Assembly: GCF_044324785.1 (NCBI RefSeq)
Contig: NZ_CP172127.1
Length of the DNA stretch: 64,000 bases
Direction: 5' to 3' (one strand)
Source: Escherichia coli
GTDB taxonomy: Bacteria; Pseudomonadota; Gammaproteobacteria; Enterobacterales; Enterobacteriaceae
The notes below the pieces were generated by a model. The model did no database searches, was not told where the DNA came from, and saw nothing but the letters and a program-made list of their open reading frames with translations. The stretch's first letter is position 1, and every line of letters starts with the position of its first letter. The position numbers and the translations under genes are program-made. Below are positions 29,859 to 63,646 of the stretch, piece after piece.

Positions 29859-29867
29859 ATTATCGAT

Positions 29868-29906
29868 AACCCGGCAGCCACGTTCTGCCGGGTTATTCGT
29901 CCGTTT
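29868..29906 (+). terminator. livF intrinsic terminator
   Basis: AACCCGGCAG / CTGCCGGGTT 10-bp stem with a 7-nt loop, followed by a moderately T-rich tail. Confidence 0.6.
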
Positions 29907-29976
29907 ACAGACTTGTTTCGACTGACCGGGAGGATTAAAACCAGACCACTTATTTGCCACGGAAAGGTTCCCTCCC

Positions 29977-30723
29977 ATGCATTATGCCGTTGTCGTCATG
30001 CTTGAACTGCTTTGCTGTATTCACGCTTATCGCTCCGGACAAGAGCGATACTGGATTTTTATTATCTTCTGTTTTCCGGTGATTGGCTGCGTGGCGTATT
30101 TCGTCATGGTTATGCTGCCTGAAACGGGCGCTGACCGTCACGGGCGTACTTTGCTGATGCGCCTGCAGGACAAAATCAGCCCGGAACGCCACCTGCACAA
30201 ATTAACCGAAGAGCTGGCGATTGCCGAGACCAATCAAAACCATTATGCGTTAGCTAACGAACTGGCGCGCCTTGGGCGTTATCACGAAGCCGTTCCCCAT
30301 TATCAGCAGGCGTTAAGCGGAATTTTCGCCCATGAAGCGGTAATGATGTTAAGCCTGGCGCAGGCGCAATTTGCTATTCAGGAGTTCGCCGCCTGTCAGC
30401 AGACGCTGGAAGATGTGATGCGTTATAACCCCGATTTTCAGTCGGCAGACGGGCATTTGTTATTTGCCAGAGCGTTAGCCGCACAAGAAGAATACGCTGA
30501 TGCGGAAAGTGAGTTTGAAGTGTTGGTTTCTTATTACCCCGGCCCGCAGGCGCGTATTTACTATGCGGAAATGCTGGCGAAAATGAGTCGGTTACGTGAA
30601 GCCAACGAGCAGTATGTTGCTGTGGTTGATACGGCTAAACGCTCAAGAGCGCATTATAGAAAACACTACCGGGAATGGATTAAGACCGCCAATGAACGGT
30701 TGAAGCAGAGTGTGGTGCAATGA
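29977..30723 (+). CDS. Hypothetical membrane protein: N-terminal two-TM domain resembling the PLD/cardiolipin-synthase N-terminal domain, plus a C-terminal TPR-like helical domain
   Basis: 248-aa ORF with two hydrophobic helices and a W...FP.IG...Y pattern (WIFIIFCFPVIGCVAYFV), followed by alanine-rich repeats with TPR-like periodicity. I do not recall a gene between livF and ugpB in K-12. Confidence 0.6.
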   Translation: MHYAVVVMLELLCCIHAYRSGQERYWIFIIFCFPVIGCVAYFVMVMLPETGADRHGRTLLMRLQDKISPERHLHKLTEELAIAETNQNHYALANELARLGRYHEAVPHYQQALSGIFAHEAVMMLSLAQAQFAIQEFAACQQTLEDVMRYNPDFQSADGHLLFARALAAQEEYADAESEFEVLVSYYPGPQARIYYAEMLAKMSRLREANEQYVAVVDTAKRSRAHYRKHYREWIKTANERLKQSVVQ

Positions 30724-30793
30724 AAATCTTCTTTGCCGTTAGACAAGTGTCGCGGCAATCTTTTGTTAAAATTGAAAAATGTAGCTCTCATCG

Positions 30794-30837
30794 GGCAGCA
30801 AAACTGGACGCAGAATTTGCTGCCATTTTTGCTCTTC
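30794..30837 (+). terminator. Intrinsic terminator after the 248-aa ORF
   Basis: GGCAGCAAA / TTTGCTGCC 9-bp stem with a 13-nt loop, followed by ATTTTTGCTCTTC. Confidence 0.5.
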
Positions 30838-30946
30838 ATGGTAAGGAGTTCTGGCGATTAGCTGGCCGTTAATCGCCTCTTTTCAGTGCATTCTCGGGAT
30901 ATCCGTGCCCCATCTCCCATTTTCCCTCACCCGTACCGTCACCGCC

Positions 30947-32399: not shown

Positions 32400-32404
32400 T
32401 TCTC

Positions 32405-32551
32405 TTACCCTCACCCTAACCCTCTCCCAAAGGGAGAGGGGACCGATCGGCGTGGTATCCAGGTGCCGTGTCGGTTTGCAACTTCGCTCGGTGGGAAAGT
32501 ATGCACCGCCTTTCTCCCTCGCCCCTCTGGGGAGAGGGCCGGGGTGAGGGG
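32405..32551. repeat. Long GC-rich palindromic intergenic repeat between ugpB and ugpA
   Basis: Arm CCCTCACCCTAACCCTCTCCC (32408..32428) pairs with inverted GGGAGAGGGCCGGGGTGAGGG near 32530..32550; each arm also holds a local hairpin (CCCTCTCCC-AAA-GGGAGAGGG). A partial copy lies at 13845..13883. Confidence 0.55.
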
Positions 32552-32574
32552 AACACAACACGAAGAGTTTAACT

Positions 32575-39188: not shown

Positions 39189-39683
39189 TTATGAACAACT
39201 GTCCATGATTTCGTTTAAGAATGAAGAGAAATCACTAAACGAACTGAATATATTTTCGGTGCCAATATTATCTCTAATTTCAAAAAAGTTACTTTTAATG
39301 TCATAAGTAAATATTGAAATGCTATCATCACCGATCACTAACCGTTCTTGTAGATCAGGGTTTATGAAATCATCATTATTTCTATAAAATTCATTTACGG
39401 CAAAAAGGTTTTTAACTGAAGGTTCTGGAATCGAGAGGCTAAATAATCGTAATCCATTAGCTTCGAATCCATCCATTGCTCTTAAAAAAGTAAGATAATC
39501 AGGTTGATTCTTAAAAAGAATACTAACTTCATTACATAACTTCTCCAGGCAATTAGTTGAATTAGAATTAAATTCTATTTGGATTATACTTTCAATAAAT
39601 GATTCCTTGAGCGGTGCTTCAAATGGATGGTCTAAATCATTCATCATTTTTTTTAATTTATTTATTTGGGTTTTAGTCATCAT
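39189..39683 (-). CDS. yrhA: YrhA, uninterrupted; candidate immunity protein for the upstream Hcp-nuclease
   Basis: 164-aa ORF, low GC, immediately downstream of yhhZ with an ATGA stop/start overlap. In K-12 I recall this gene as a pseudogene disrupted by IS1; no IS1 sequence is present here. Confidence 0.6.
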   Translation of the reverse strand: MMTKTQINKLKKMMNDLDHPFEAPLKESFIESIIQIEFNSNSTNCLEKLCNEVSILFKNQPDYLTFLRAMDGFEANGLRLFSLSIPEPSVKNLFAVNEFYRNNDDFINPDLQERLVIGDDSISIFTYDIKSNFFEIRDNIGTENIFSSFSDFSSFLNEIMDSCS

Positions 39684-41582: not shown

Positions 41583-41914
41583 TCCTTTGTCCTCTTTGGG
41601 GTAAATGTCCCTTTCAACATCATTGACTTTCACATACGAGTCAAATGCATTTTTTTGCAAAAAGTGTTGGACAAGTGCGAATGAGAATGATTATTATTGT
41701 CTCGCGATCAGGAAGACCCTCGCGGAGAACCTGAAAGCACGACATTGCTCACATTGCTTCCAGTATTACTTAGCCAGCCGGGTGCTGGCTTTTTTTTTGA
41801 TCTTTCGTTCTCAATTTATCCACGGGAGTGCTTGTGTTCGTTATGCGCACTCCAGTAGGAACCACGTCCGCTTTGCGCTAAGGTGTAAATAACCACCTTA
41901 AAAAGGACGAAATC

Positions 41915-45659: not shown

Positions 45660-47000
45660 GTGACTACATTAACGCTTGTTTTAACAGCAGTAGGGTCTGT
45701 TTTACTGCTGCTGTTTTTAGTCATGAAGGCGCGTATGCACGCTTTCCTGGCTTTGATGGTGGTGTCCATGGGGGCTGGCCTTTTTTCCGGTATGCCGCTC
45801 GATAAAATCGCAGCGACGATGGAAAAAGGGATGGGAGGCACCCTCGGCTTTCTGGCGGTGGTTGTCGCCCTGGGAGCCATGTTTGGCAAGATCTTACATG
45901 AAACCGGCGCAGTCGATCAGATTGCCGTCAAAATGCTCAAATCCTTCGGTCACAGCCGCGCGCATTATGCCATCGGCCTTGCGGGGCTGGTCTGTGCGCT
46001 GCCGTTGTTCTTTGAAGTGGCGATTGTTCTGCTGATTAGCGTTGCTTTCTCAATGGCGCGCCACACCGGTACGAACCTGGTGAAGCTGGTAATCCCATTA
46101 TTCGCAGGCGTGGCGGCAGCGGCTGCGTTCCTGGTGCCGGGGCCTGCGCCAATGCTGCTGGCATCGCAGATGAACGCCGACTTTGGCTGGATGATCCTGA
46201 TTGGCCTGTGTGCGGCAATTCCGGGAATGATTATTGCCGGGCCGCTGTGGGGTAATTTCATCAGCCGCTACGTGGAGTTGCATATTCCTGACGACATCAG
46301 CGAACCACATCTCGGTGAAGGCAAAATGCCGTCCTTCGGATTCAGCCTGTCGCTGATCCTGTTGCCACTGGTGCTGGTGGGGCTGAAAACCATTGCCGCG
46401 CGCTTTGTGCCGGAAGGCTCTACCGCTTACGAATGGTTCGAGTTTATTGGTCATCCGTTTACCGCGATTCTGGTTGCTTGTCTGGTAGCAATTTATGGCC
46501 TGGCAATGCGTCAGGGTATGCCAAAAGACAAAGTGATGGAAATTTGTGGTCACGCGCTGCAACCGGCGGGGATCATTCTGCTGGTGATTGGTGCAGGCGG
46601 CGTGTTCAAACAGGTGCTGGTTGACTCTGGCGTAGGTCCGGCACTGGGCGAAGCGTTAACCGGCATGGGCCTGCCGATTGCCATCACCTGCTTCGTGCTG
46701 GCAGCTGCAGTGCGCATCATTCAGGGTTCTGCCACCGTTGCCTGTTTAACGGCGGTGGGACTGGTGATGCCGGTTATTGAACAACTGAACTATTCCGGAG
46801 CGCAAATGGCGGCGCTGTCGATTTGTATCGCCGGTGGTTCGATTGTTGTCAGCCACGTTAACGACGCCGGTTTCTGGTTGTTCGGTAAATTTACCGGCGC
46901 GACTGAAGCCGAAACACTGAAAACCTGGACCATGATGGAAACCATCCTCGGCACTGTCGGTGCTATCGTTGGGATGATTGCGTTCCAACTGTTGAGTTAA
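45660..47000 (+). CDS. gntU: Low-affinity gluconate permease GntU (GntP family)
   Basis: 446-aa polytopic transporter with GTG start, 4 nt after the gntK stop. Confidence 0.9.
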   Translation: MTTLTLVLTAVGSVLLLLFLVMKARMHAFLALMVVSMGAGLFSGMPLDKIAATMEKGMGGTLGFLAVVVALGAMFGKILHETGAVDQIAVKMLKSFGHSRAHYAIGLAGLVCALPLFFEVAIVLLISVAFSMARHTGTNLVKLVIPLFAGVAAAAAFLVPGPAPMLLASQMNADFGWMILIGLCAAIPGMIIAGPLWGNFISRYVELHIPDDISEPHLGEGKMPSFGFSLSLILLPLVLVGLKTIAARFVPEGSTAYEWFEFIGHPFTAILVACLVAIYGLAMRQGMPKDKVMEICGHALQPAGIILLVIGAGGVFKQVLVDSGVGPALGEALTGMGLPIAITCFVLAAAVRIIQGSATVACLTAVGLVMPVIEQLNYSGAQMAALSICIAGGSIVVSHVNDAGFWLFGKFTGATEAETLKTWTMMETILGTVGAIVGMIAFQLLS

Positions 47001-47011
47001 TTACTGCGACA

Positions 47012-47055
47012 AATTACTGCGAGCTTGCTCGCAGTAATTCATTTCTCTTTTCTCC
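47012..47055 (+). terminator. gntU intrinsic terminator
   Basis: AATTACTGCGAGC / GCTCGCAGTAATT near-perfect palindrome followed by CATTTCTCTTTTCTCC. Confidence 0.7.
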
Positions 47056-47139
47056 TGTCTTCATCTTTTTGATCTCTCTCGCAAATTTACCTGCTAATAA
47101 TCCGTTCTAATCACTGCCTAAAGATCGCAGGAGATAAAG

Positions 47140-49236
47140 ATGGAAAAGCACGGAGCTGAATTGCTTTTACAGCGGATGTTAGGAAATACCACCGCTACTT
47201 TCAGGGAAGGGCAATGGGAAGCCATAGATGCAGTGGTTAATCAGCGGCGAAAACTGCTGGTTGTACAGCGCACCGGCTGGGGGAAAAGTGCCGTGTACTT
47301 CATCGCCAGTAAAATCTTCCGAGATCGCGGCGCTGGCCCGACAATTATCATCTCTCCTTTGCTTGCCCTGATGCGTAACCAGGTTGCCGCCGCTGAACGG
47401 TTAGGTATTACGGCTGAAACGTTGAATTCTACAAACAGGGAAGAATGGCAGCGCATTAGCGATAAGTTGCTGCAAGGTGAGGTCGATTGCTTGCTGGTTT
47501 CCCCGGAACGATTGGCAAACCAGGACTTTATCGAAACGGTTTTATATCCTATAGCCGATCGTATTGGCTTGCTTGTGGTCGACGAGGCGCACTGCATCTC
47601 TGATTGGGGCCACGATTTTCGCCCGGATTACCGACGTATATTAGATATTTTGCGCCAACTGCCTGCGAATACCCCTGTTCTGGGTACAACCGCGACAGCG
47701 AATAACCGTGTTGTTGAGGATATCCGTCAGCAATTGGGTGACATTGTGATTCAGCGTGGAACGCTGGCTCGCGAAAGTTTGGCGCTTGATGCCTTAGTCT
47801 TAGGAGAACAGTCATCCCGTCTGGCATGGTTAGCAACGGTTATCCCTCAGTTTTCCAAATCGGGAATTGTTTATACCCTGACGACTCGCGATGCTGAACT
47901 TGTCGCCGAGTGGTTAAGGAAAAATGGTATCAGTGCATTTGCTTACTACAGCGGCGTGACTTGTGAAGGCGCGGAAGATTCTAATACTGCCAGGGAATAT
48001 CTGGAGCAGGCACTGCTGGCAAATAAAATCAAAGTGCTGGTCGCGACGACGGCATTAGGTATGGGGTTTGATAAACCTGATTTAGGTTTCGTCATTCATT
48101 ATCAGATGCCGGGGTCTATTGTCGGTTACTACCAACAGGTGGGGCGTGCCGGTCGTGCTATAGATTCCGCAGTTGGCATATTGCTTTGTGGTGGTGAAGA
48201 CCGCGCTATTCATCAATTCTTCCGTGAAAGCGCCTTTCCTGCGGAGGCGCAAATTCATGAAATACTCAACGTACTTAGCGAGAATGACGGTCTTACCCTA
48301 CGAGGCATTGAACAACGGACGAATCTTCGTTATGGGCAAATAGAAAAAGCACTGAAATTATTGGTAGCGGAAAATCCATCGCCTGTGGTGTATACCGAGA
48401 AATTATGGCGCAGAACTATCGTCAGTTTTTCTCCTGATCATGAACGAATTAACCATTTGATGAATCAGAGAAAAAGTGAGCTGGCAGACGTTGAAAGCTA
48501 TATCACGACCAAGGAGTGCAAAATGCAATTTCTGCGCCGTGCACTCGATGAGCCAAGTGCCGAACGTTGTGGTAAATGTAGCAGTTGTCTTCAGCATCCG
48601 TTATTGTCGCCCGACATTGATAGCGGCTTACTCCATGCGGCAAATTTATTTATTAAACACGCTGACCTGCCGTTAAATCTCAATAAACAGGTGGCAGCTG
48701 GGGCTTTTACGCAATACGGATTTAAAGGGAACTTGCCTGCGGGTTTACAAGGATCTACGGGGCGAATCCTTTCTCGTTGGGGAGATTCCGGGTGGGGAAA
48801 GCAGGTAGCACAGGAGAAAAAAACGGGGCGCTTCAGTGATGAGCTGGTAGAAGCATGTGCGGAAATGGTTCGCCAACGCTGGAATCCGCATCCTGAACCA
48901 ACCTGGGTATGCTGCGTTCCTTCATTAAGGCACCTCGACCTGGTTCCTGATTTTGCCCGGCGACTGGCGGCGAAACTTGGCTTACCTTTTATTGATGCCA
49001 TTGAAAAAGTCGTGGACAATCCACCGCAGAAAATGCAGCAAAACCGTTTTCACCAGTGTCAAAATCTCGACGGGGCGTTTGTGATTACCCCTCCTTTGAT
49101 GCCAGGTCCGGCGTTGCTGGTTGACGATATCGTGGATTCTGCATGGACGCTGACAGTTCTGACAGCACTGTTACGCCAGGCAGGTTGCCCGACGGTTTAT
49201 CCTCTTGCCCTTGCTTCTACCTCGGTAAAAAATTGA
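47140..49236 (+). CDS. RecQ-like SF2 DNA helicase fused to a C-terminal ComF/GntX-type phosphoribosyltransferase-fold domain
   Basis: 698 aa. Walker A TGWGKS (47272..47289); DEAH box with RecQ signature VVDEAHCISDWGHDFRPDY (DEAH at 47581..47592); GTTATA; YYQQVGRAGR; Cys cluster CKMQ...CGKCSSC. The C-terminal 180 aa carry the PRTase motif LLVDDIVDSAWTLT (Asp-Asp codons from 49123). AGGAG Shine-Dalgarno 8 nt upstream. Confidence 0.85.
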   Translation: MEKHGAELLLQRMLGNTTATFREGQWEAIDAVVNQRRKLLVVQRTGWGKSAVYFIASKIFRDRGAGPTIIISPLLALMRNQVAAAERLGITAETLNSTNREEWQRISDKLLQGEVDCLLVSPERLANQDFIETVLYPIADRIGLLVVDEAHCISDWGHDFRPDYRRILDILRQLPANTPVLGTTATANNRVVEDIRQQLGDIVIQRGTLARESLALDALVLGEQSSRLAWLATVIPQFSKSGIVYTLTTRDAELVAEWLRKNGISAFAYYSGVTCEGAEDSNTAREYLEQALLANKIKVLVATTALGMGFDKPDLGFVIHYQMPGSIVGYYQQVGRAGRAIDSAVGILLCGGEDRAIHQFFRESAFPAEAQIHEILNVLSENDGLTLRGIEQRTNLRYGQIEKALKLLVAENPSPVVYTEKLWRRTIVSFSPDHERINHLMNQRKSELADVESYITTKECKMQFLRRALDEPSAERCGKCSSCLQHPLLSPDIDSGLLHAANLFIKHADLPLNLNKQVAAGAFTQYGFKGNLPAGLQGSTGRILSRWGDSGWGKQVAQEKKTGRFSDELVEACAEMVRQRWNPHPEPTWVCCVPSLRHLDLVPDFARRLAAKLGLPFIDAIEKVVDNPPQKMQQNRFHQCQNLDGAFVITPPLMPGPALLVDDIVDSAWTLTVLTALLRQAGCPTVYPLALASTSVKN

Positions 49237-50438
49237 TGAATCTTTCAGCCAATGCACAAGCGACTCTCCTGCTAACCAGCGATTTTTCTCGCGCGGCGGC
49301 GAGTGAGTATAAACCTCTTAGTAATAGTGAATGGGGGAAGTTTGCATTATGGCTGAAGCACCAACGTATCAGTCCCGCCGATCTTCTGGTACCGCAACCG
49401 CAAGAGAAACTTACAGGCTGGAGCGATCCGCGTATTTCTCAGGAGCGTATTCTTGGCTTGCTGGCGCGTGGTCATAGTCTGGCGTTGGCGGTAGATAAGT
49501 GGCAACGCGCCGGATTATGGATCTTAACCCGCGGAGATGCCGATTATCCCGTTCGCTTGAAAAACCGATTGCGAACGGATGCTCCTCCCGTTTTATTTGG
49601 CTGCGGGAATAAAGCATTATTGCAAGCGGAAGGTATGGCGATTGTTGGCTCGCGAGATGCTCCGACTGACGATTTGCGCTATACCCAACAACTGGCAGCG
49701 AAACTGGCCCAACAGGGGATTTGCGTTATCTCTGGTGGTGCGCGAGGTATTGATGAATGTGCAATGGCGTCGGCACTGGAGGCCGGGGGAACTGCCGTTG
49801 GCGTATTAGCTGATAGCTTGTTAAAAACGAGCACGTTAGTGAAATGGCGTGAAGGGCTTATAGCAGGCAACCTGGTGTTGATTTCACCGTTTTACCCAGA
49901 GGTACGTTTCACTGTCGGCAATGCGATGGCGCGGAATAAATATATTTATTGCCTTGCTGAAAGCGCAATGGTTGTACGTGCGGGAATGACCGGTGGAACG
50001 ATAACCGGAGCGATGGAGGCGTTAAAACATCAGTGGCTGCCTGTTCTGGTTAAACCAAATCAGGATGTGCAATCAGCCAATTCACGATTAGTAGAAAATG
50101 GGGCGTCATGGAGTGCTGAACAGGCTGAGAATGTGACGATCAGACTGCCAGATGTTCCTGGGCTGATGTATGACAGAGCACTCCGTAACGCTCAACCAGA
50201 ATTGTTTTCGCTGCTCGAAGATGACGCAAATTACGCAGTAATGCCCGCGCATACCCCTGTCGATTTTTATCAACTCTTTGTGGCGGAACTGGCGATCCTT
50301 GCAAAGGAATCGATAAGTATTGAAAGGCTGGCGTCTTGTACTGGTTTAACCATCGAACAAATTAGTGTGTGGCTGAACCGCGCAGAAGAAGAGGGAAGGG
50401 TTATCCGATTGGGCGAAGGTCATTATCAGTTCAGGTAA
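49236..50438 (+). CDS. DprA/Smf-like (SLOG Rossmann) protein with a C-terminal winged-helix-like region
   Basis: DprA core motifs AIVGSRDAPTDDL, ISGGARGIDECAM, NAMARNKYIYCLAE and VVRAGMTGGT. Start chosen at the ATG sharing one base with the upstream TGA stop (400 aa); an in-frame ATG at 49143 would give 431 aa. Confidence 0.8.
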   Translation: MNLSANAQATLLLTSDFSRAAASEYKPLSNSEWGKFALWLKHQRISPADLLVPQPQEKLTGWSDPRISQERILGLLARGHSLALAVDKWQRAGLWILTRGDADYPVRLKNRLRTDAPPVLFGCGNKALLQAEGMAIVGSRDAPTDDLRYTQQLAAKLAQQGICVISGGARGIDECAMASALEAGGTAVGVLADSLLKTSTLVKWREGLIAGNLVLISPFYPEVRFTVGNAMARNKYIYCLAESAMVVRAGMTGGTITGAMEALKHQWLPVLVKPNQDVQSANSRLVENGASWSAEQAENVTIRLPDVPGLMYDRALRNAQPELFSLLEDDANYAVMPAHTPVDFYQLFVAELAILAKESISIERLASCTGLTIEQISVWLNRAEEEGRVIRLGEGHYQFR

Positions 50439-50440
50439 TA

Positions 50441-50478
50441 AAACAGGTGCCGCGTCTGGTTGTGTGCAGCACCTGTTT
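50441..50478. terminator. Hairpin between the DprA-like gene and convergent yhgN
   Basis: AAACAGGTGC / GCACCTGTTT 10-bp inverted repeat with an 18-nt loop, between two convergent stop codons. Confidence 0.45.
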
Positions 50479-50483
50479 GAACC

Positions 50484-51077
50484 TTACCCCTTCATCCACA
50501 TTCGAATCCCGTCGAGGAACATCTGGGTTGCCATCATCACCAGAATCAATCCCATCAGGCGTTCAAGTGCATTCACCCCTTTCTCGCCGAGCAGACGTAA
50601 AAATAGCGAAGACTGTAGCAGGATGACAAAGGTGCCACCCCAGGCCAGCAGCAGAGCAATTACCAGATGTCCCATCTGATTCGGGTACTGATGAGACAAC
50701 AACATCAGCGTGGCGAGAATAGTCGGCCCGGCGACTAACGGAATTGCCAACGGCACGATAAACGGCTCTTCACCTGCCGGAAGCCCGCTGCTATTTCCTG
50801 AAGCACTGGGGAAAATCATCTTAATGGCGATCAGAAACAGAATGATGCCGCCAGAAATGGAGACGGTTTCTGCCCGCAGGCTAAGAAATGCCAGAATTTT
50901 CTCACCCGCAAACAGGAACACCAGCATCACCAGGAGAGCAATAAGCAACTCTCGCACCATGATTGCCCGCCGTCTTTTCGGTTCAGTATGTTTCAGTACG
51001 GACATGAAAATAGGTAGGTTTCCGAGCGGATCCATAATCAGGATCAATAAAACTGCTGCAGAAATGATTTCATTCAT
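50484..51077 (-). CDS. yhgN: MarC-family inner-membrane protein YhgN
   Basis: 197-aa hydrophobic ORF adjacent to asd. Confidence 0.85.
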   Translation of the reverse strand: MNEIISAAVLLILIMDPLGNLPIFMSVLKHTEPKRRRAIMVRELLIALLVMLVFLFAGEKILAFLSLRAETVSISGGIILFLIAIKMIFPSASGNSSGLPAGEEPFIVPLAIPLVAGPTILATLMLLSHQYPNQMGHLVIALLLAWGGTFVILLQSSLFLRLLGEKGVNALERLMGLILVMMATQMFLDGIRMWMKG

Positions 51078-62057: not shown

Positions 62058-62140
62058 GCCATCATTTCGGAAAAGTGTCCAGAAGGGGCAAGGGGACTCG
62101 GGGAGTATAATTTTGCCATTCAGAAAGAATGGAAAGAATA

Positions 62141-63646
62141 ATGCAAAACAGAAAATGGATTTTGACCTCGCTGGTAATGACTTTTTTCGGCATCCCCATT
62201 CTGGCGCAGTTTTTGGCGGCGGTTATTGCCATGCTGGGGGCCGGGCTTGCCGCTATTCTTGAGTTTTGCAATTTACTCTTTACGCCAACAATTTATCTTC
62301 TACTCAACGTCTTTATGCTGACGCTGGGCGCATTACTGCTATTTTTCTCTGGGCGAGTGTGGGCGGGCGATAACGCACCAGAAAACAGAGAAATAGCCGC
62401 CTGGCGACAATGTCTTTTTTTAGTTCCCGCTTTATTAACCCTGGTTGGCTGGATAATCACGCTACATCTGGCAGATTATCAATTTCGCCAGATGGTTTCA
62501 GGTTGGTTGGCAGATCTTATGCTTCCCTGGCTGGGTGTTTTGTTAGTCTCATTAGTCGGTGGTGAGTACTGGTGGATAGTCATTATTCCCGTTGGAACGC
62601 ATATCATTTTTTCGCTGGGATACGGCTGGCCGACAAGGCATCCTTTAACCGGCACGTCCGGGCTACGTTGCCGTAACTTACTCCTGTTTCTACTTCTCTT
62701 ACTTGGTATTGTCGCTGGGTATCAGGCCCATTTATATAAGCAGCATAACCCTGGTGTTGGTGTACGCGAAAATATTGATATCTGGGCCTGGCGACCCGAT
62801 AAACTCAATAATCGACTGACGCCGCTGCGTGGCAAACCGCAAATTCAGTTTACGCAAAACTGGCCGCGAATCGATGGTGCCACGGCGGCGTACCCAATTT
62901 ATGCTTCTGCCTTTTATGCGTTAAGCATAATACCAGAGGATTTTCACGTTTGGGATTATCTGGATAACTCTCGTACGCCAGAAGCATATAACAAAATCGT
63001 TAAGGGCGATGCTGATATTATTTTCGTGGCGCAACCTTCCGGTGGGCAGAAAAAACGTGCAAAGGAATCTGGTGTCACTTTGCTGTACACCCCCTTTGCT
63101 CGTGAAGCATTTGTTTTTATCGTCAATGCTGATAATCCAGTCAATTCCCTGACTGAACAACAAGTGCGAGACATTTTTAGTGGCGCAATTACCAACTGGC
63201 GTACTGTGGGCGGTAACGATCAGGAGATCCAGACCTGGCAACGCCCGGAAGACTCTGGCAGTCAGACGGTGATGCAATTACAGGTCATGAAAAATGTCCG
63301 TATGATCTCGCCGCAGGAAACCGAAGTGGCAAGTGTGATGGAGGGAATGATTAAAGTCGTTGCCGAATACCGTAATACAAACAACGCAATAGGTTATACC
63401 TTCCGCTATTACGCAACACAAATGAATGCCGATAAGAATATCAAATTGTTAGCGATTAACGGTATTGCACCGACTGCGGAAAACATTCGCAATGGCAAAT
63501 ATCCCTATATCGTCGATGCCTTTATGGTAACGCGGGAAAATATGACGTCAGAAACACAAAAACTGGTTGAATGGTTTTTAACGCCGCAGGGGCAGAGTTT
63601 GGTAGAAGACGTGGGTTATGTGCCGATGTATAAAACGTTGCATTAA
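62141..63646 (+). CDS. yzgL: Membrane protein with a C-terminal PstS-like periplasmic phosphate-binding domain (intact counterpart of the K-12 yzgL pseudogene)
   Basis: About 200 aa of hydrophobic helices followed by a substrate-binding-protein-like domain. Start set at MQNRKW (62141), which has better Shine-Dalgarno spacing than the ATG at 62129. Confidence 0.6.
   Translation: MQNRKWILTSLVMTFFGIPILAQFLAAVIAMLGAGLAAILEFCNLLFTPTIYLLLNVFMLTLGALLLFFSGRVWAGDNAPENREIAAWRQCLFLVPALLTLVGWIITLHLADYQFRQMVSGWLADLMLPWLGVLLVSLVGGEYWWIVIIPVGTHIIFSLGYGWPTRHPLTGTSGLRCRNLLLFLLLLLGIVAGYQAHLYKQHNPGVGVRENIDIWAWRPDKLNNRLTPLRGKPQIQFTQNWPRIDGATAAYPIYASAFYALSIIPEDFHVWDYLDNSRTPEAYNKIVKGDADIIFVAQPSGGQKKRAKESGVTLLYTPFAREAFVFIVNADNPVNSLTEQQVRDIFSGAITNWRTVGGNDQEIQTWQRPEDSGSQTVMQLQVMKNVRMISPQETEVASVMEGMIKVVAEYRNTNNAIGYTFRYYATQMNADKNIKLLAINGIAPTAENIRNGKYPYIVDAFMVTRENMTSETQKLVEWFLTPQGQSLVEDVGYVPMYKTLH

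Follow-up and report, generated by a model that had tools for sequence, protein, structure and literature searches.

Between gntU and yhgN, which in Escherichia coli K-12 MG1655 are convergent and separated by a 56-bp spacer (K-12 annotation), the E. coli chromosome analyzed here carries two further genes. What are they, do they form a new system, and does that system act against phages? Here, we report an analysis of this junction within a 64,000-nucleotide window (the whole stretch of DNA analyzed, to which all coordinates refer). The insert is real but not new, and its genes, their toxin-antitoxin behavior, and their listing as a defense system are all already known from publications. With high confidence, we identify the locus as the rqlH-rqlI operon, alias PsyrTA, a toxin-antitoxin-like module of two genes that is commonly found in E. 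coli as an accessory locus.

The accessory segment

Alignment to the K-12 junction ended at 47000, with the gntU stop codon, and restarted at 50484, with that of yhgN; therefore, the 3,483 bp at 47001..50483 take the place of the K-12 spacer, and an initial annotation made from the sequence alone was right to call an accessory insert absent from K-12. The insert has a GC content of 0.493 (window, 0.527). A repeat scan, together with the open reading frames, found no terminal inverted repeats, flanking direct repeats, target-site duplication, or integrase at its edges. Its features were as follows.

47001..50483, no strand: accessory segment, 3,483 bp (K-12 junction alignment, K-12 annotation, repeat scan)
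47012..47039, + strand: left hairpin, terminator-like, after gntU; 13-nt perfect arms at 47012..47024 and 47027..47039
47129..47133, + strand: ribosome-binding site AGGAG, 6 nt 5' of the rqlH ATG
47140..49236, + strand: rqlH/psyrT (ORF1), 698 aa; RecQ-like SF2 helicase with a C-terminal phosphoribosyltransferase (PRTase), the toxin
47197..48174, + strand: helicase core, approximately residues 20-345 (Pfam; E. coli RecQ 1oyw, E = 2.2e-53)
47284..47286, + strand: K49 of the Walker A motif GWGKS, which starts at residue 46 (sequence motif)
47581..47592, + strand: DEAH, residues 148-151 (sequence motif)
48568..48588, + strand: cysteine cluster CGKCSSC, residues 477-483, in a weak RecQ_Zn_bind match (E = 0.0014)
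48787..49224, + strand: predicted PRTase-fold domain, approximately residues 550-695 (AF2 model and Foldseek; weak Pfam)
49126..49128, + strand: D663 of the PRPP-loop motif VDDIVDS, residues 661-667 (sequence motif)
49236..50438, + strand: rqlI/psyrA (ORF2), 400 aa; DprA-like SLOG protein with an HTH-like C-terminal tail, the antitoxin
50441..50478, no strand: right hairpin between convergent rqlI and yhgN (repeat scan and RNA folding)

Strong hairpins bound both ends. The left one (−18.1 kcal/mol as RNA, z = −5.4), whose T-rich tail reaches approximately 47055, had been taken for the gntU terminator; it lies inside the insert, and the K-12 spacer has its own, different hairpin. The right one had been described as shared by the convergent genes, and it indeed folds on both strands (z = −3.2 on + and −4.7 on −), making it a likely bidirectional terminator. 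A sigma-70 consensus scan of the 139-bp leader returned no match on the + strand, so no promoter is claimed in 47040..47128.

Across 5,426 complete E. coli genomes, 1,650 (~30%) carried the locus, chromosomal in every case, and 3,774 others had the empty K-12-type junction. Neither gntU nor yhgN is mentioned in the hotspot map of Hochhauser 2023, which a two-gene insert would escape because the method scores sites with three or fewer genes as "empty."

Identity as rqlHI (PsyrTA)

The domain content read from the letters held up in profile searches. Gene 1 matched the PADLOC PsyrT profile at 1067.8 bits (residues 3-697 on positions 5-687 of 689) and gene 2 the PsyrA profile at 665.7 bits (residues 1-400 on positions 1-397 of 398), both full-length. 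Gene 1 also scored above the cut-off of the RecQ family model TIGR00614 (252.8 vs 219.8 bits) and matched Pfam DEAD and Helicase_C, with Walker A and DEAH intact. Its fused PRTase gave a weak match to Pribosyltran (PF00156; residues 605-683, E = 0.0087), a domain present in most homologs. Searched against the PDB by sequence alone, the last 198 residues of RqlH gave nothing significant (best E = 0.25, to adenine PRTases), and the fold was therefore checked with AF2 and Foldseek. The model of residues 500-698 had a core pLDDT of 75-96 (68 overall, owing to an unstructured first 46 residues), and its top 50 Foldseek PDB matches were all type I PRTases, with Helicobacter pylori ComF at rank 19. 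By this model, the C-terminal domain is a PRTase fold.

Gene 2 had been read as DprA/SLOG-like, which Pfam bears out (DNA_processg_A, 3.9e-50, residues 89-292, 49500..50111; SLOG cluster4, 1.4e-11); its PDB matches include DprA and ShosA. The two genes overlap as proposed, though by one base rather than through a 4-base ATGA: the junction reads TGATG, with TGA at 49234..49236 and ATG at 49236..49238. PGAP places the gene 2 start at an upstream ATG (49143), giving 431 aa; we favor 49236 because the PsyrA profile fits from residue 1 and published RqlI has 400 aa.

RqlH and RqlI of uropathogenic (ExPEC) E. coli F11 are 698 and 400 aa long (Russell & Mulvey 2015, PMC4670107), with the same gene order, toxin first, and overlapping stop and start codons. 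K49, D148, and D663 of gene 1 sit at the same positions as the residues mutated in published RqlH. rqlH differs from its CFT073 counterpart at 9/698 residues, and gene 2 differs from that of CFT073 at 6/431 and from STEC 1299 PsyrA at 11/400. The identification as rqlHI thus rests on full-length profile matches, equal lengths, equal motif positions, and few differences from CFT073. Only allelic differences separate this copy from known E. coli rqlHI, and its chromosomal site is that of CFT073 and STEC. The hallmarks of the PsyrTA/RqlHI family were all found, namely a RecQ-family helicase, a PRTase with an acidic PRPP-loop, an overlapping DprA-like partner, and full-length profile matches.

The name PsyrTA comes from Sberro 2013 and Millman 2022, the latter equating it with RqlHI and listing it as a defense system. 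The initial annotation could not place a RecQ-PRTase fusion in any described system and proposed the locus as an uncharacterized candidate for defense or DNA processing. Both points fall away: the fusion is that of RqlH/RqlI, and the exact locus has been cloned and phage tested, since the Millman E. coli construct SG127 (3,485 bp, STEC 1299, Table S2) maps to 47000..50484 of the window. With dedicated PsyrTA models in PADLOC and DefenseFinder (standard defense finders call the locus automatically), functional work on the E. coli genes published in 2015, and a 2022 defense catalogue entry, the probability that this is a previously undescribed system is negligible.

Other assignments were tried and rejected. 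Housekeeping RecQ has a homologous helicase core, but the likeness stops near residue 365, where the profile matches also end (TIGR01389, 296.3 vs 640.2 bits; NF008279, 225.4 vs 1015), and the C-terminal half of RqlH differs and ends in the PRTase. DpdF, of Dpd 7-deazaguanine DNA modification, was set aside on NF041063 (148.9 vs 550 bits) and on PADLOC DpdF hits that were partial and far below PsyrT. Canonical DprA was discarded for RqlI, which fell under both equivalog cut-offs (TIGR00732, 102.2 vs 191.15 bits; NF008007, 80 vs 495).

Toxin-antitoxin behavior and phage tests

Near-identical E. coli alleles have been characterized (Russell & Mulvey 2015, PMC4670107). In that work, rqlH and rqlI were co-transcribed, and F11 RqlH without RqlI in MG1655 caused SOS induction, filamentation, a mutator phenotype, and growth loss. 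Toxicity required the PRPP-binding motif (abolished by D663A and DIVD663EVME), the isolated PRTase domain was insufficient for it, and helicase-dead RqlH (K49A or D148A) was still harmful. RqlI neutralized RqlH and co-precipitated with it only when the PRTase domain was present. A delta-psyrA clone was unobtainable (Millman 2022). We regard as settled the identity of the locus and the toxin-antitoxin behavior of the published alleles, which this copy probably shares.

The initial annotation aptly likened the pair to anti-phage modules of DprA-like and PRTase genes. ShosTA (also Rst_DprA-PPRT; Rousset 2022, Pu 2025, NAR 2026) likewise joins a PRTase toxin to a DprA-like antitoxin, with PRPP-binding-dependent toxicity, DNA damage, and filamentation. 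However, ShosT begins with a pyrophosphatase (HAD-like) domain, whereas the first 360 residues of RqlH are a RecQ helicase. ShosTA is a type IV pair with no binding between its two proteins, unlike RqlI and RqlH, which co-precipitate, and RqlI scores 94.8 bits with the ShosA profile against 665.7 with PsyrA. Membership in ShosTA/DprA-PPRT was rejected on the helicase present in the toxin. Mycobacterium smegmatis RqlH also joins a RecQ-like helicase to a C-terminal PRTase; by the work of Ordonez, Unciuleac & Shuman 2012, as cited in the literature on these genes, it is a 3'-5' helicase whose activity is lost in the equivalent K and D mutants. Unlike the E. coli protein, it has no RqlI partner. 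In Gram-positive and actinobacterial genomes, rqlH usually stands alone.

The STEC 1299 version of the locus, on a construct that retained the native leader, gave no observed defense in the Millman panel (Millman 2022, Table S2). In E. coli NILS69, studied as a native host, PsyrTA conferred no detectable protection, and its expression in MG1655 impaired growth. PsyrTA of Bacillus sp. FJAT-29814, with the same two-gene architecture and domains, did protect in the assay, unlike the E. coli construct (scored "v" for "observed defense" and listed as "Verified"; Millman 2022); it is a distant relative, 53% identical over the helicase part of PsyrT and 32% in PsyrA. A very common E. coli "defense system," found in 30% of complete genomes, has thus been negative in phage tests of its E. 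coli alleles.

Competing accounts of function

The reading we favor, by inference, is that the pair acts as an abortive-infection type defense module. The RecQ-like helicase and the DprA-like, putatively single-stranded DNA (ssDNA)-binding RqlI would jointly hold the PRTase off until foreign DNA, replication intermediates, or a block in host gene expression releases it; the freed PRTase might then spend PRPP in a reaction that is genotoxic or disturbs nucleotide pools, and the infected cell would stop. The analogy is with ShosT, a PRPP-binding PRTase that perturbs purine metabolism, and ShosA, which binds ssDNA and RecA. Genomic surroundings bear on this proposal and on its rivals. A DprA-like gene lies directly 3' of the toxin on the same strand, its start codon overlapping or adjoining the toxin stop codon, at eight further loci in six other genera. 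In E. coli, Citrobacter, and Silvania, the pair is alone among core genes, with no adjacent defense or mobility genes, and holds the same core-genome position in all three. Homologs ~65% identical occur within type I restriction-modification (R-M) operons of Proteus, Alcaligenes, Halomonas, and Teredinibacter, where they separate hsdS from hsdR, and Halomonas meridiana has the pair within a BREX locus. Within E. coli, identity of the pair (97.1%) equals that of its flanks (97.0% and 98.5%), whereas between genera RqlH (72-73%) and RqlI (62-63%) contrast with flanking proteins at 90-97%.

In the cooperative model of Russell & Mulvey, RqlH and RqlI would jointly maintain the cell's own DNA or answer stress, aiding fitness in host colonization rather than phage defense. 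rqlI emerged as a fitness gene from infections of zebrafish and mice, the two proteins interact, the phenotypes are those of DNA stress, and both phage tests of E. coli alleles were negative; the shared position across three enterobacterial genera and a divergence within E. coli equal to that of the flanks fit long vertical residence. However, rqlH deletion rescues the in vivo defects of delta-rqlI, so those defects reflect unleashed toxicity rather than a lost beneficial function. The pair is also absent from ~70% of E. coli, the two proteins diverge between genera far faster than their neighbors, as conflict genes do, and homologs sit within R-M and BREX loci. We consider this model possible, if doubtful. 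The demonstrated toxin-antitoxin behavior, with E. coli alleles lacking a defense phenotype in published tests, would also suit a selfish addiction module kept since its loss is costly and bringing the host no benefit. That account is unlikely: a non-mobile chromosomal site with no surrounding mobile element leaves little room for post-segregational killing, a 698-aa helicase conserved full-length with intact motifs at ~65% identity across orders exceeds what addiction needs, and the family is linked to defense islands.

The initial annotation had also pointed to the cytoplasmic core of natural transformation, a ComFA/ComFC/DprA-like module processing incoming DNA. What favors it is domain likeness: RqlI has a DprA-like fold, and H. 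pylori ComF is among the structural matches of the RqlH PRTase. However, RqlI fails both DprA cut-offs given above, a canonical DprA is encoded separately in E. coli F11 (Russell & Mulvey 2015, PMC4670107), the helicase is of the RecQ family rather than ComFA type, and the published phenotypes are of toxicity rather than DNA uptake; we therefore hold this role to be highly improbable.

Returning to the proposed abortive-infection module, observations point both ways: the two negative phage tests and the lone core-gene setting speak against defense by the E. coli alleles, and the verified, though distant, Bacillus homolog and the R-M and BREX embedding of relatives speak for a defense role of the family. 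A speculative and rather improbable joint reading takes the enterobacterial RqlHI lineage fixed at gntU-yhgN for a chromosomally resident derivative that has lost a general anti-phage role, responds to another invader or stress, and uses an unconventional phosphoribose acceptor. It stems from the two negative phage panels set against defense-like relatives in R-M and BREX loci. Under it, the helicase-tethered PRTase might move phosphoribose to an acceptor on or near DNA, which, if true, would be chemistry without demonstrated precedent among PRTase toxins.

A literature search for PsyrTA lying within type I R-M operons found nothing specific, the nearest report being of a Halomonas island in which BREX encloses PsyrTA. 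The pair is sharply split by context, lone at a core-genome site in Enterobacteriaceae and embedded between hsdS and hsdR elsewhere, which may guide the choice of homolog to study.

Structure of the insert and its junction with K-12

The interval between gntU and yhgN is filled by two plus-strand open reading frames, with a hairpin at either end.

47012..47039, left hairpin (perfect 13-bp stem, T-rich tail), opening the insert
47140..49236, + strand, ORF1 (protein 1, rqlH), 698 aa
49236..50438, + strand, ORF2 (protein 2, rqlI), 400 aa
50441..50478, right hairpin, closing the insert

In K-12 MG1655, gntU and yhgN are convergent and separated by a 56-bp spacer. When the K-12 junction was aligned to the window, the match broke off precisely at the stop codon of gntU (47000) and restarted precisely at that of yhgN (50484); therefore, 3,483 bp stand in place of the K-12 spacer and of the hairpin that it contains. 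The accessory insert proposed at this site in the initial annotation is thus real, with small corrections only. Both insert hairpins folded far better than shuffled controls. GC content was 0.493 for the insert versus 0.527 for the window, and the open reading frame listing and repeat scan showed neither terminal repeats nor a duplicated target site within the insert, and no mobility gene.

An AGGAG motif lies 6 nt 5' of the ORF1 ATG. The two genes do overlap, as had been noted, but by one base common to the ORF1 TGA stop (49234..49236) and the ORF2 ATG (49236..49238), not by an ATGA. In CFT073 and N3, RefSeq (NCBI PGAP) extends the second gene to an upstream ATG (added stretch, window 49143-49235), so that the product has 431 aa and the gene overlaps rqlH by 94 nt; the ATG at 49236 is favored by the PsyrA profile and by the length of published RqlI (400 aa).

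Identity of the encoded proteins

Protein 1 matched the PADLOC PsyrT profile over its full length (1067.8 bits; residues 3-697 aligned with positions 5-687 of the 689-position profile). It scored above the RecQ-family subfamily cut-off and below the RecQ, DpdF, and other equivalog cut-offs. Pfam assigned it DEAD and Helicase_C domains and gave weak matches to RecQ Zn-binding and, at residues 605-683, to Pribosyltran. Searched alone by sequence against the PDB, the phosphoribosyltransferase (PRTase) domain gave a best E value of 0.25. Because this sequence signal was weak, residues 500-698 were modeled from 13 diverse homologs. The structured core (pLDDT, 75-96) retrieved only type I PRTases among its top 50 PDB matches, including PurF, HGPRT, PRPP synthetase, and Helicobacter pylori ComF. 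Protein 2 matched PADLOC PsyrA over its full length (665.7 bits), carried Pfam DNA_processg_A (3.9e-50) and SLOG cluster4 (1.4e-11), resembled solved DprA and ShosA structures, and fell under both DprA equivalog cut-offs. Profile searches and the PRTase model thus bear out the RecQ-type helicase, PRTase, and DprA/SLOG domain calls made earlier.

The suggestion that the system was undescribed did not hold, as it has been published both as rqlH/rqlI (Russell and Mulvey 2015, PMC4670107) and as PsyrTA (Millman et al. 2022). Russell and Mulvey named the E. coli genes (698 and 400 aa), reported both absent from MG1655, and equated them with PsyrT/PsyrA of Pseudomonas syringae (Sberro 2013). The genes are cotranscribed, and when RqlI is missing, RqlH triggers the SOS response, filamentation, and a mutator phenotype; toxicity needs the PRTase motif, the PRTase domain by itself is not enough, and helicase-dead mutants are harmful too (PMC4670107). 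RqlI coprecipitated with RqlH only when the PRTase domain was present (PMC4670107). The mutants made in that work were K49A, D148A, D663A, and DIVD663EVME; window protein 1 has GWGKS at 46-50, DEAH at 148, and DIVD at 663. Millman et al. include "PsyrTA (also called RqlHI)" in their list of anti-phage systems and were unable to recover a delta-psyrA clone; the pair is also treated by Rousset 2022 and Iyer et al. 2017. The window pair is almost certainly RqlHI/PsyrTA with toxin-antitoxin behavior, and the insert is a real but ordinary instance of a system already known.

Possible phage defense and proposed mechanism

Whether the window allele has an anti-phage role is evenly balanced. In the observed-defense column of Millman et al. 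2022, construct SG127 (PsyrTA of E. coli STEC 1299) is marked "x" and SG128 (Bacillus sp. FJAT-29814) is marked "v." The cloned segment of SG127 (3,485 bp) begins at what corresponds to window position 47000 and would end at 50484, and is therefore the whole insert; identity to the window was 96% over the 399 bp compared, and 11 of 400 PsyrA residues differed. Relative to the window proteins, the verified Bacillus pair showed 53% identity in the helicase part and 32% in PsyrA. Work on PsyrTA in its native host, E. coli NILS69, detected no protection, and the system caused a growth defect upon expression in MG1655.

Published experiments show a toxin-antitoxin pair whose toxicity hinges on the PRTase motif, with RqlI bound directly to RqlH by way of the PRTase domain. 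By analogy with ShosTA, a related PRTase toxin and DprA-like antitoxin pair, and from genomic context, the helicase and DprA-like partner would keep the PRTase off, and foreign DNA or shut-off of host expression may release it. In ShosTA itself, the PRTase binds PRPP, with disturbance of purine metabolism; single-stranded DNA (ssDNA) as well as RecA are bound by ShosA, and ssDNA or a shut-off of transcription have been proposed as triggers.

Distribution and other features of the window

The insert was present in 1,650 of 5,426 complete E. coli genomes (near full length in 1,641), always chromosomal, with CFT073 and O157:H7 among the carriers. Another 3,774 had the empty K-12-type junction, the two states accounting for 5,424 of the 5,426. 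Against CFT073, the insert (97.1% identity) and its flanks (97.0% and 98.5%) were alike in divergence. According to Wu et al., the system is enriched in phylogroup E2. Shigella sonnei proteins were truncated RqlH forms (594-657 aa) without a PRTase Pfam match, and E. coli record NZ_OZ501598.1 matched only the 3' 53% of the insert, with a PRTase remnant annotated separately as "ComF family protein." Such forms resemble decayed alleles, in agreement with the IS-disrupted allele of S. sonnei 53G noted by Russell and Mulvey (PMC4670107).

The pair occupies the same gntU-yhgN site in Citrobacter freundii (locus L006/L007:6001-9302) and Silvania hatchlandensis (L013:7001-10272), where divergence is far greater for RqlH (72-73% identity to E. 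coli) and RqlI (62-63%) than for the flanking GntK, GntU, YhgN, and Asd (90-97%). In a published island of Halomonas meridiana, BREX encloses the pair. A type I restriction-modification operon has rqlH-rqlI between its hsdS and hsdR genes in Proteus terrae, Alcaligenes nematophilus, Halomonas sp. QHL1, and Teredinibacter turnerae (loci L008:2634-12743, L010:3634-13743, L011:3789-12129, and L012:3637-13740); prrC holds this position in the EcoprrI locus. These homologs are ~65% identical, with a longer RqlI (418-463 aa) and conserved upstream genes (HTH_3 of 380 aa, a 183-aa gene, and HTH_17); integrase and GmrSD genes lie near the Halomonas locus. We found no paper in the literature on rqlH-rqlI between hsdS and hsdR.

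Elsewhere, window position 1 corresponds to K-12 position 3622565, within the coding region of rhsB. The livF/ugpB interval (29859-30899) holds ~1 kb without a K-12 counterpart, with an open reading frame (29977..30723, +, 248 aa) giving weak TPR-type NCBIfam matches only, and 174 bp at the ugpB/ugpA junction (32401-32574) lacked a megablast match to K-12. At 39294-39302, yrhA is without K-12's IS1E insertion, and the two K-12 alignment blocks meet there and share 9 bp, as would fit a target duplication by IS1 in K-12. RyhB (41733-41797; RF00057, 83.1 bits) was the sole Rfam family at gathering threshold within the window. A 505-aa open reading frame 3' of glgP (62129-63646) is hydrophobic in its N-terminal half and matches a PstS-family phosphate-binding domain at 121 bits, under the cut-off; the K-12 match stops at 62363, where K-12 has only the short yzgL gene.
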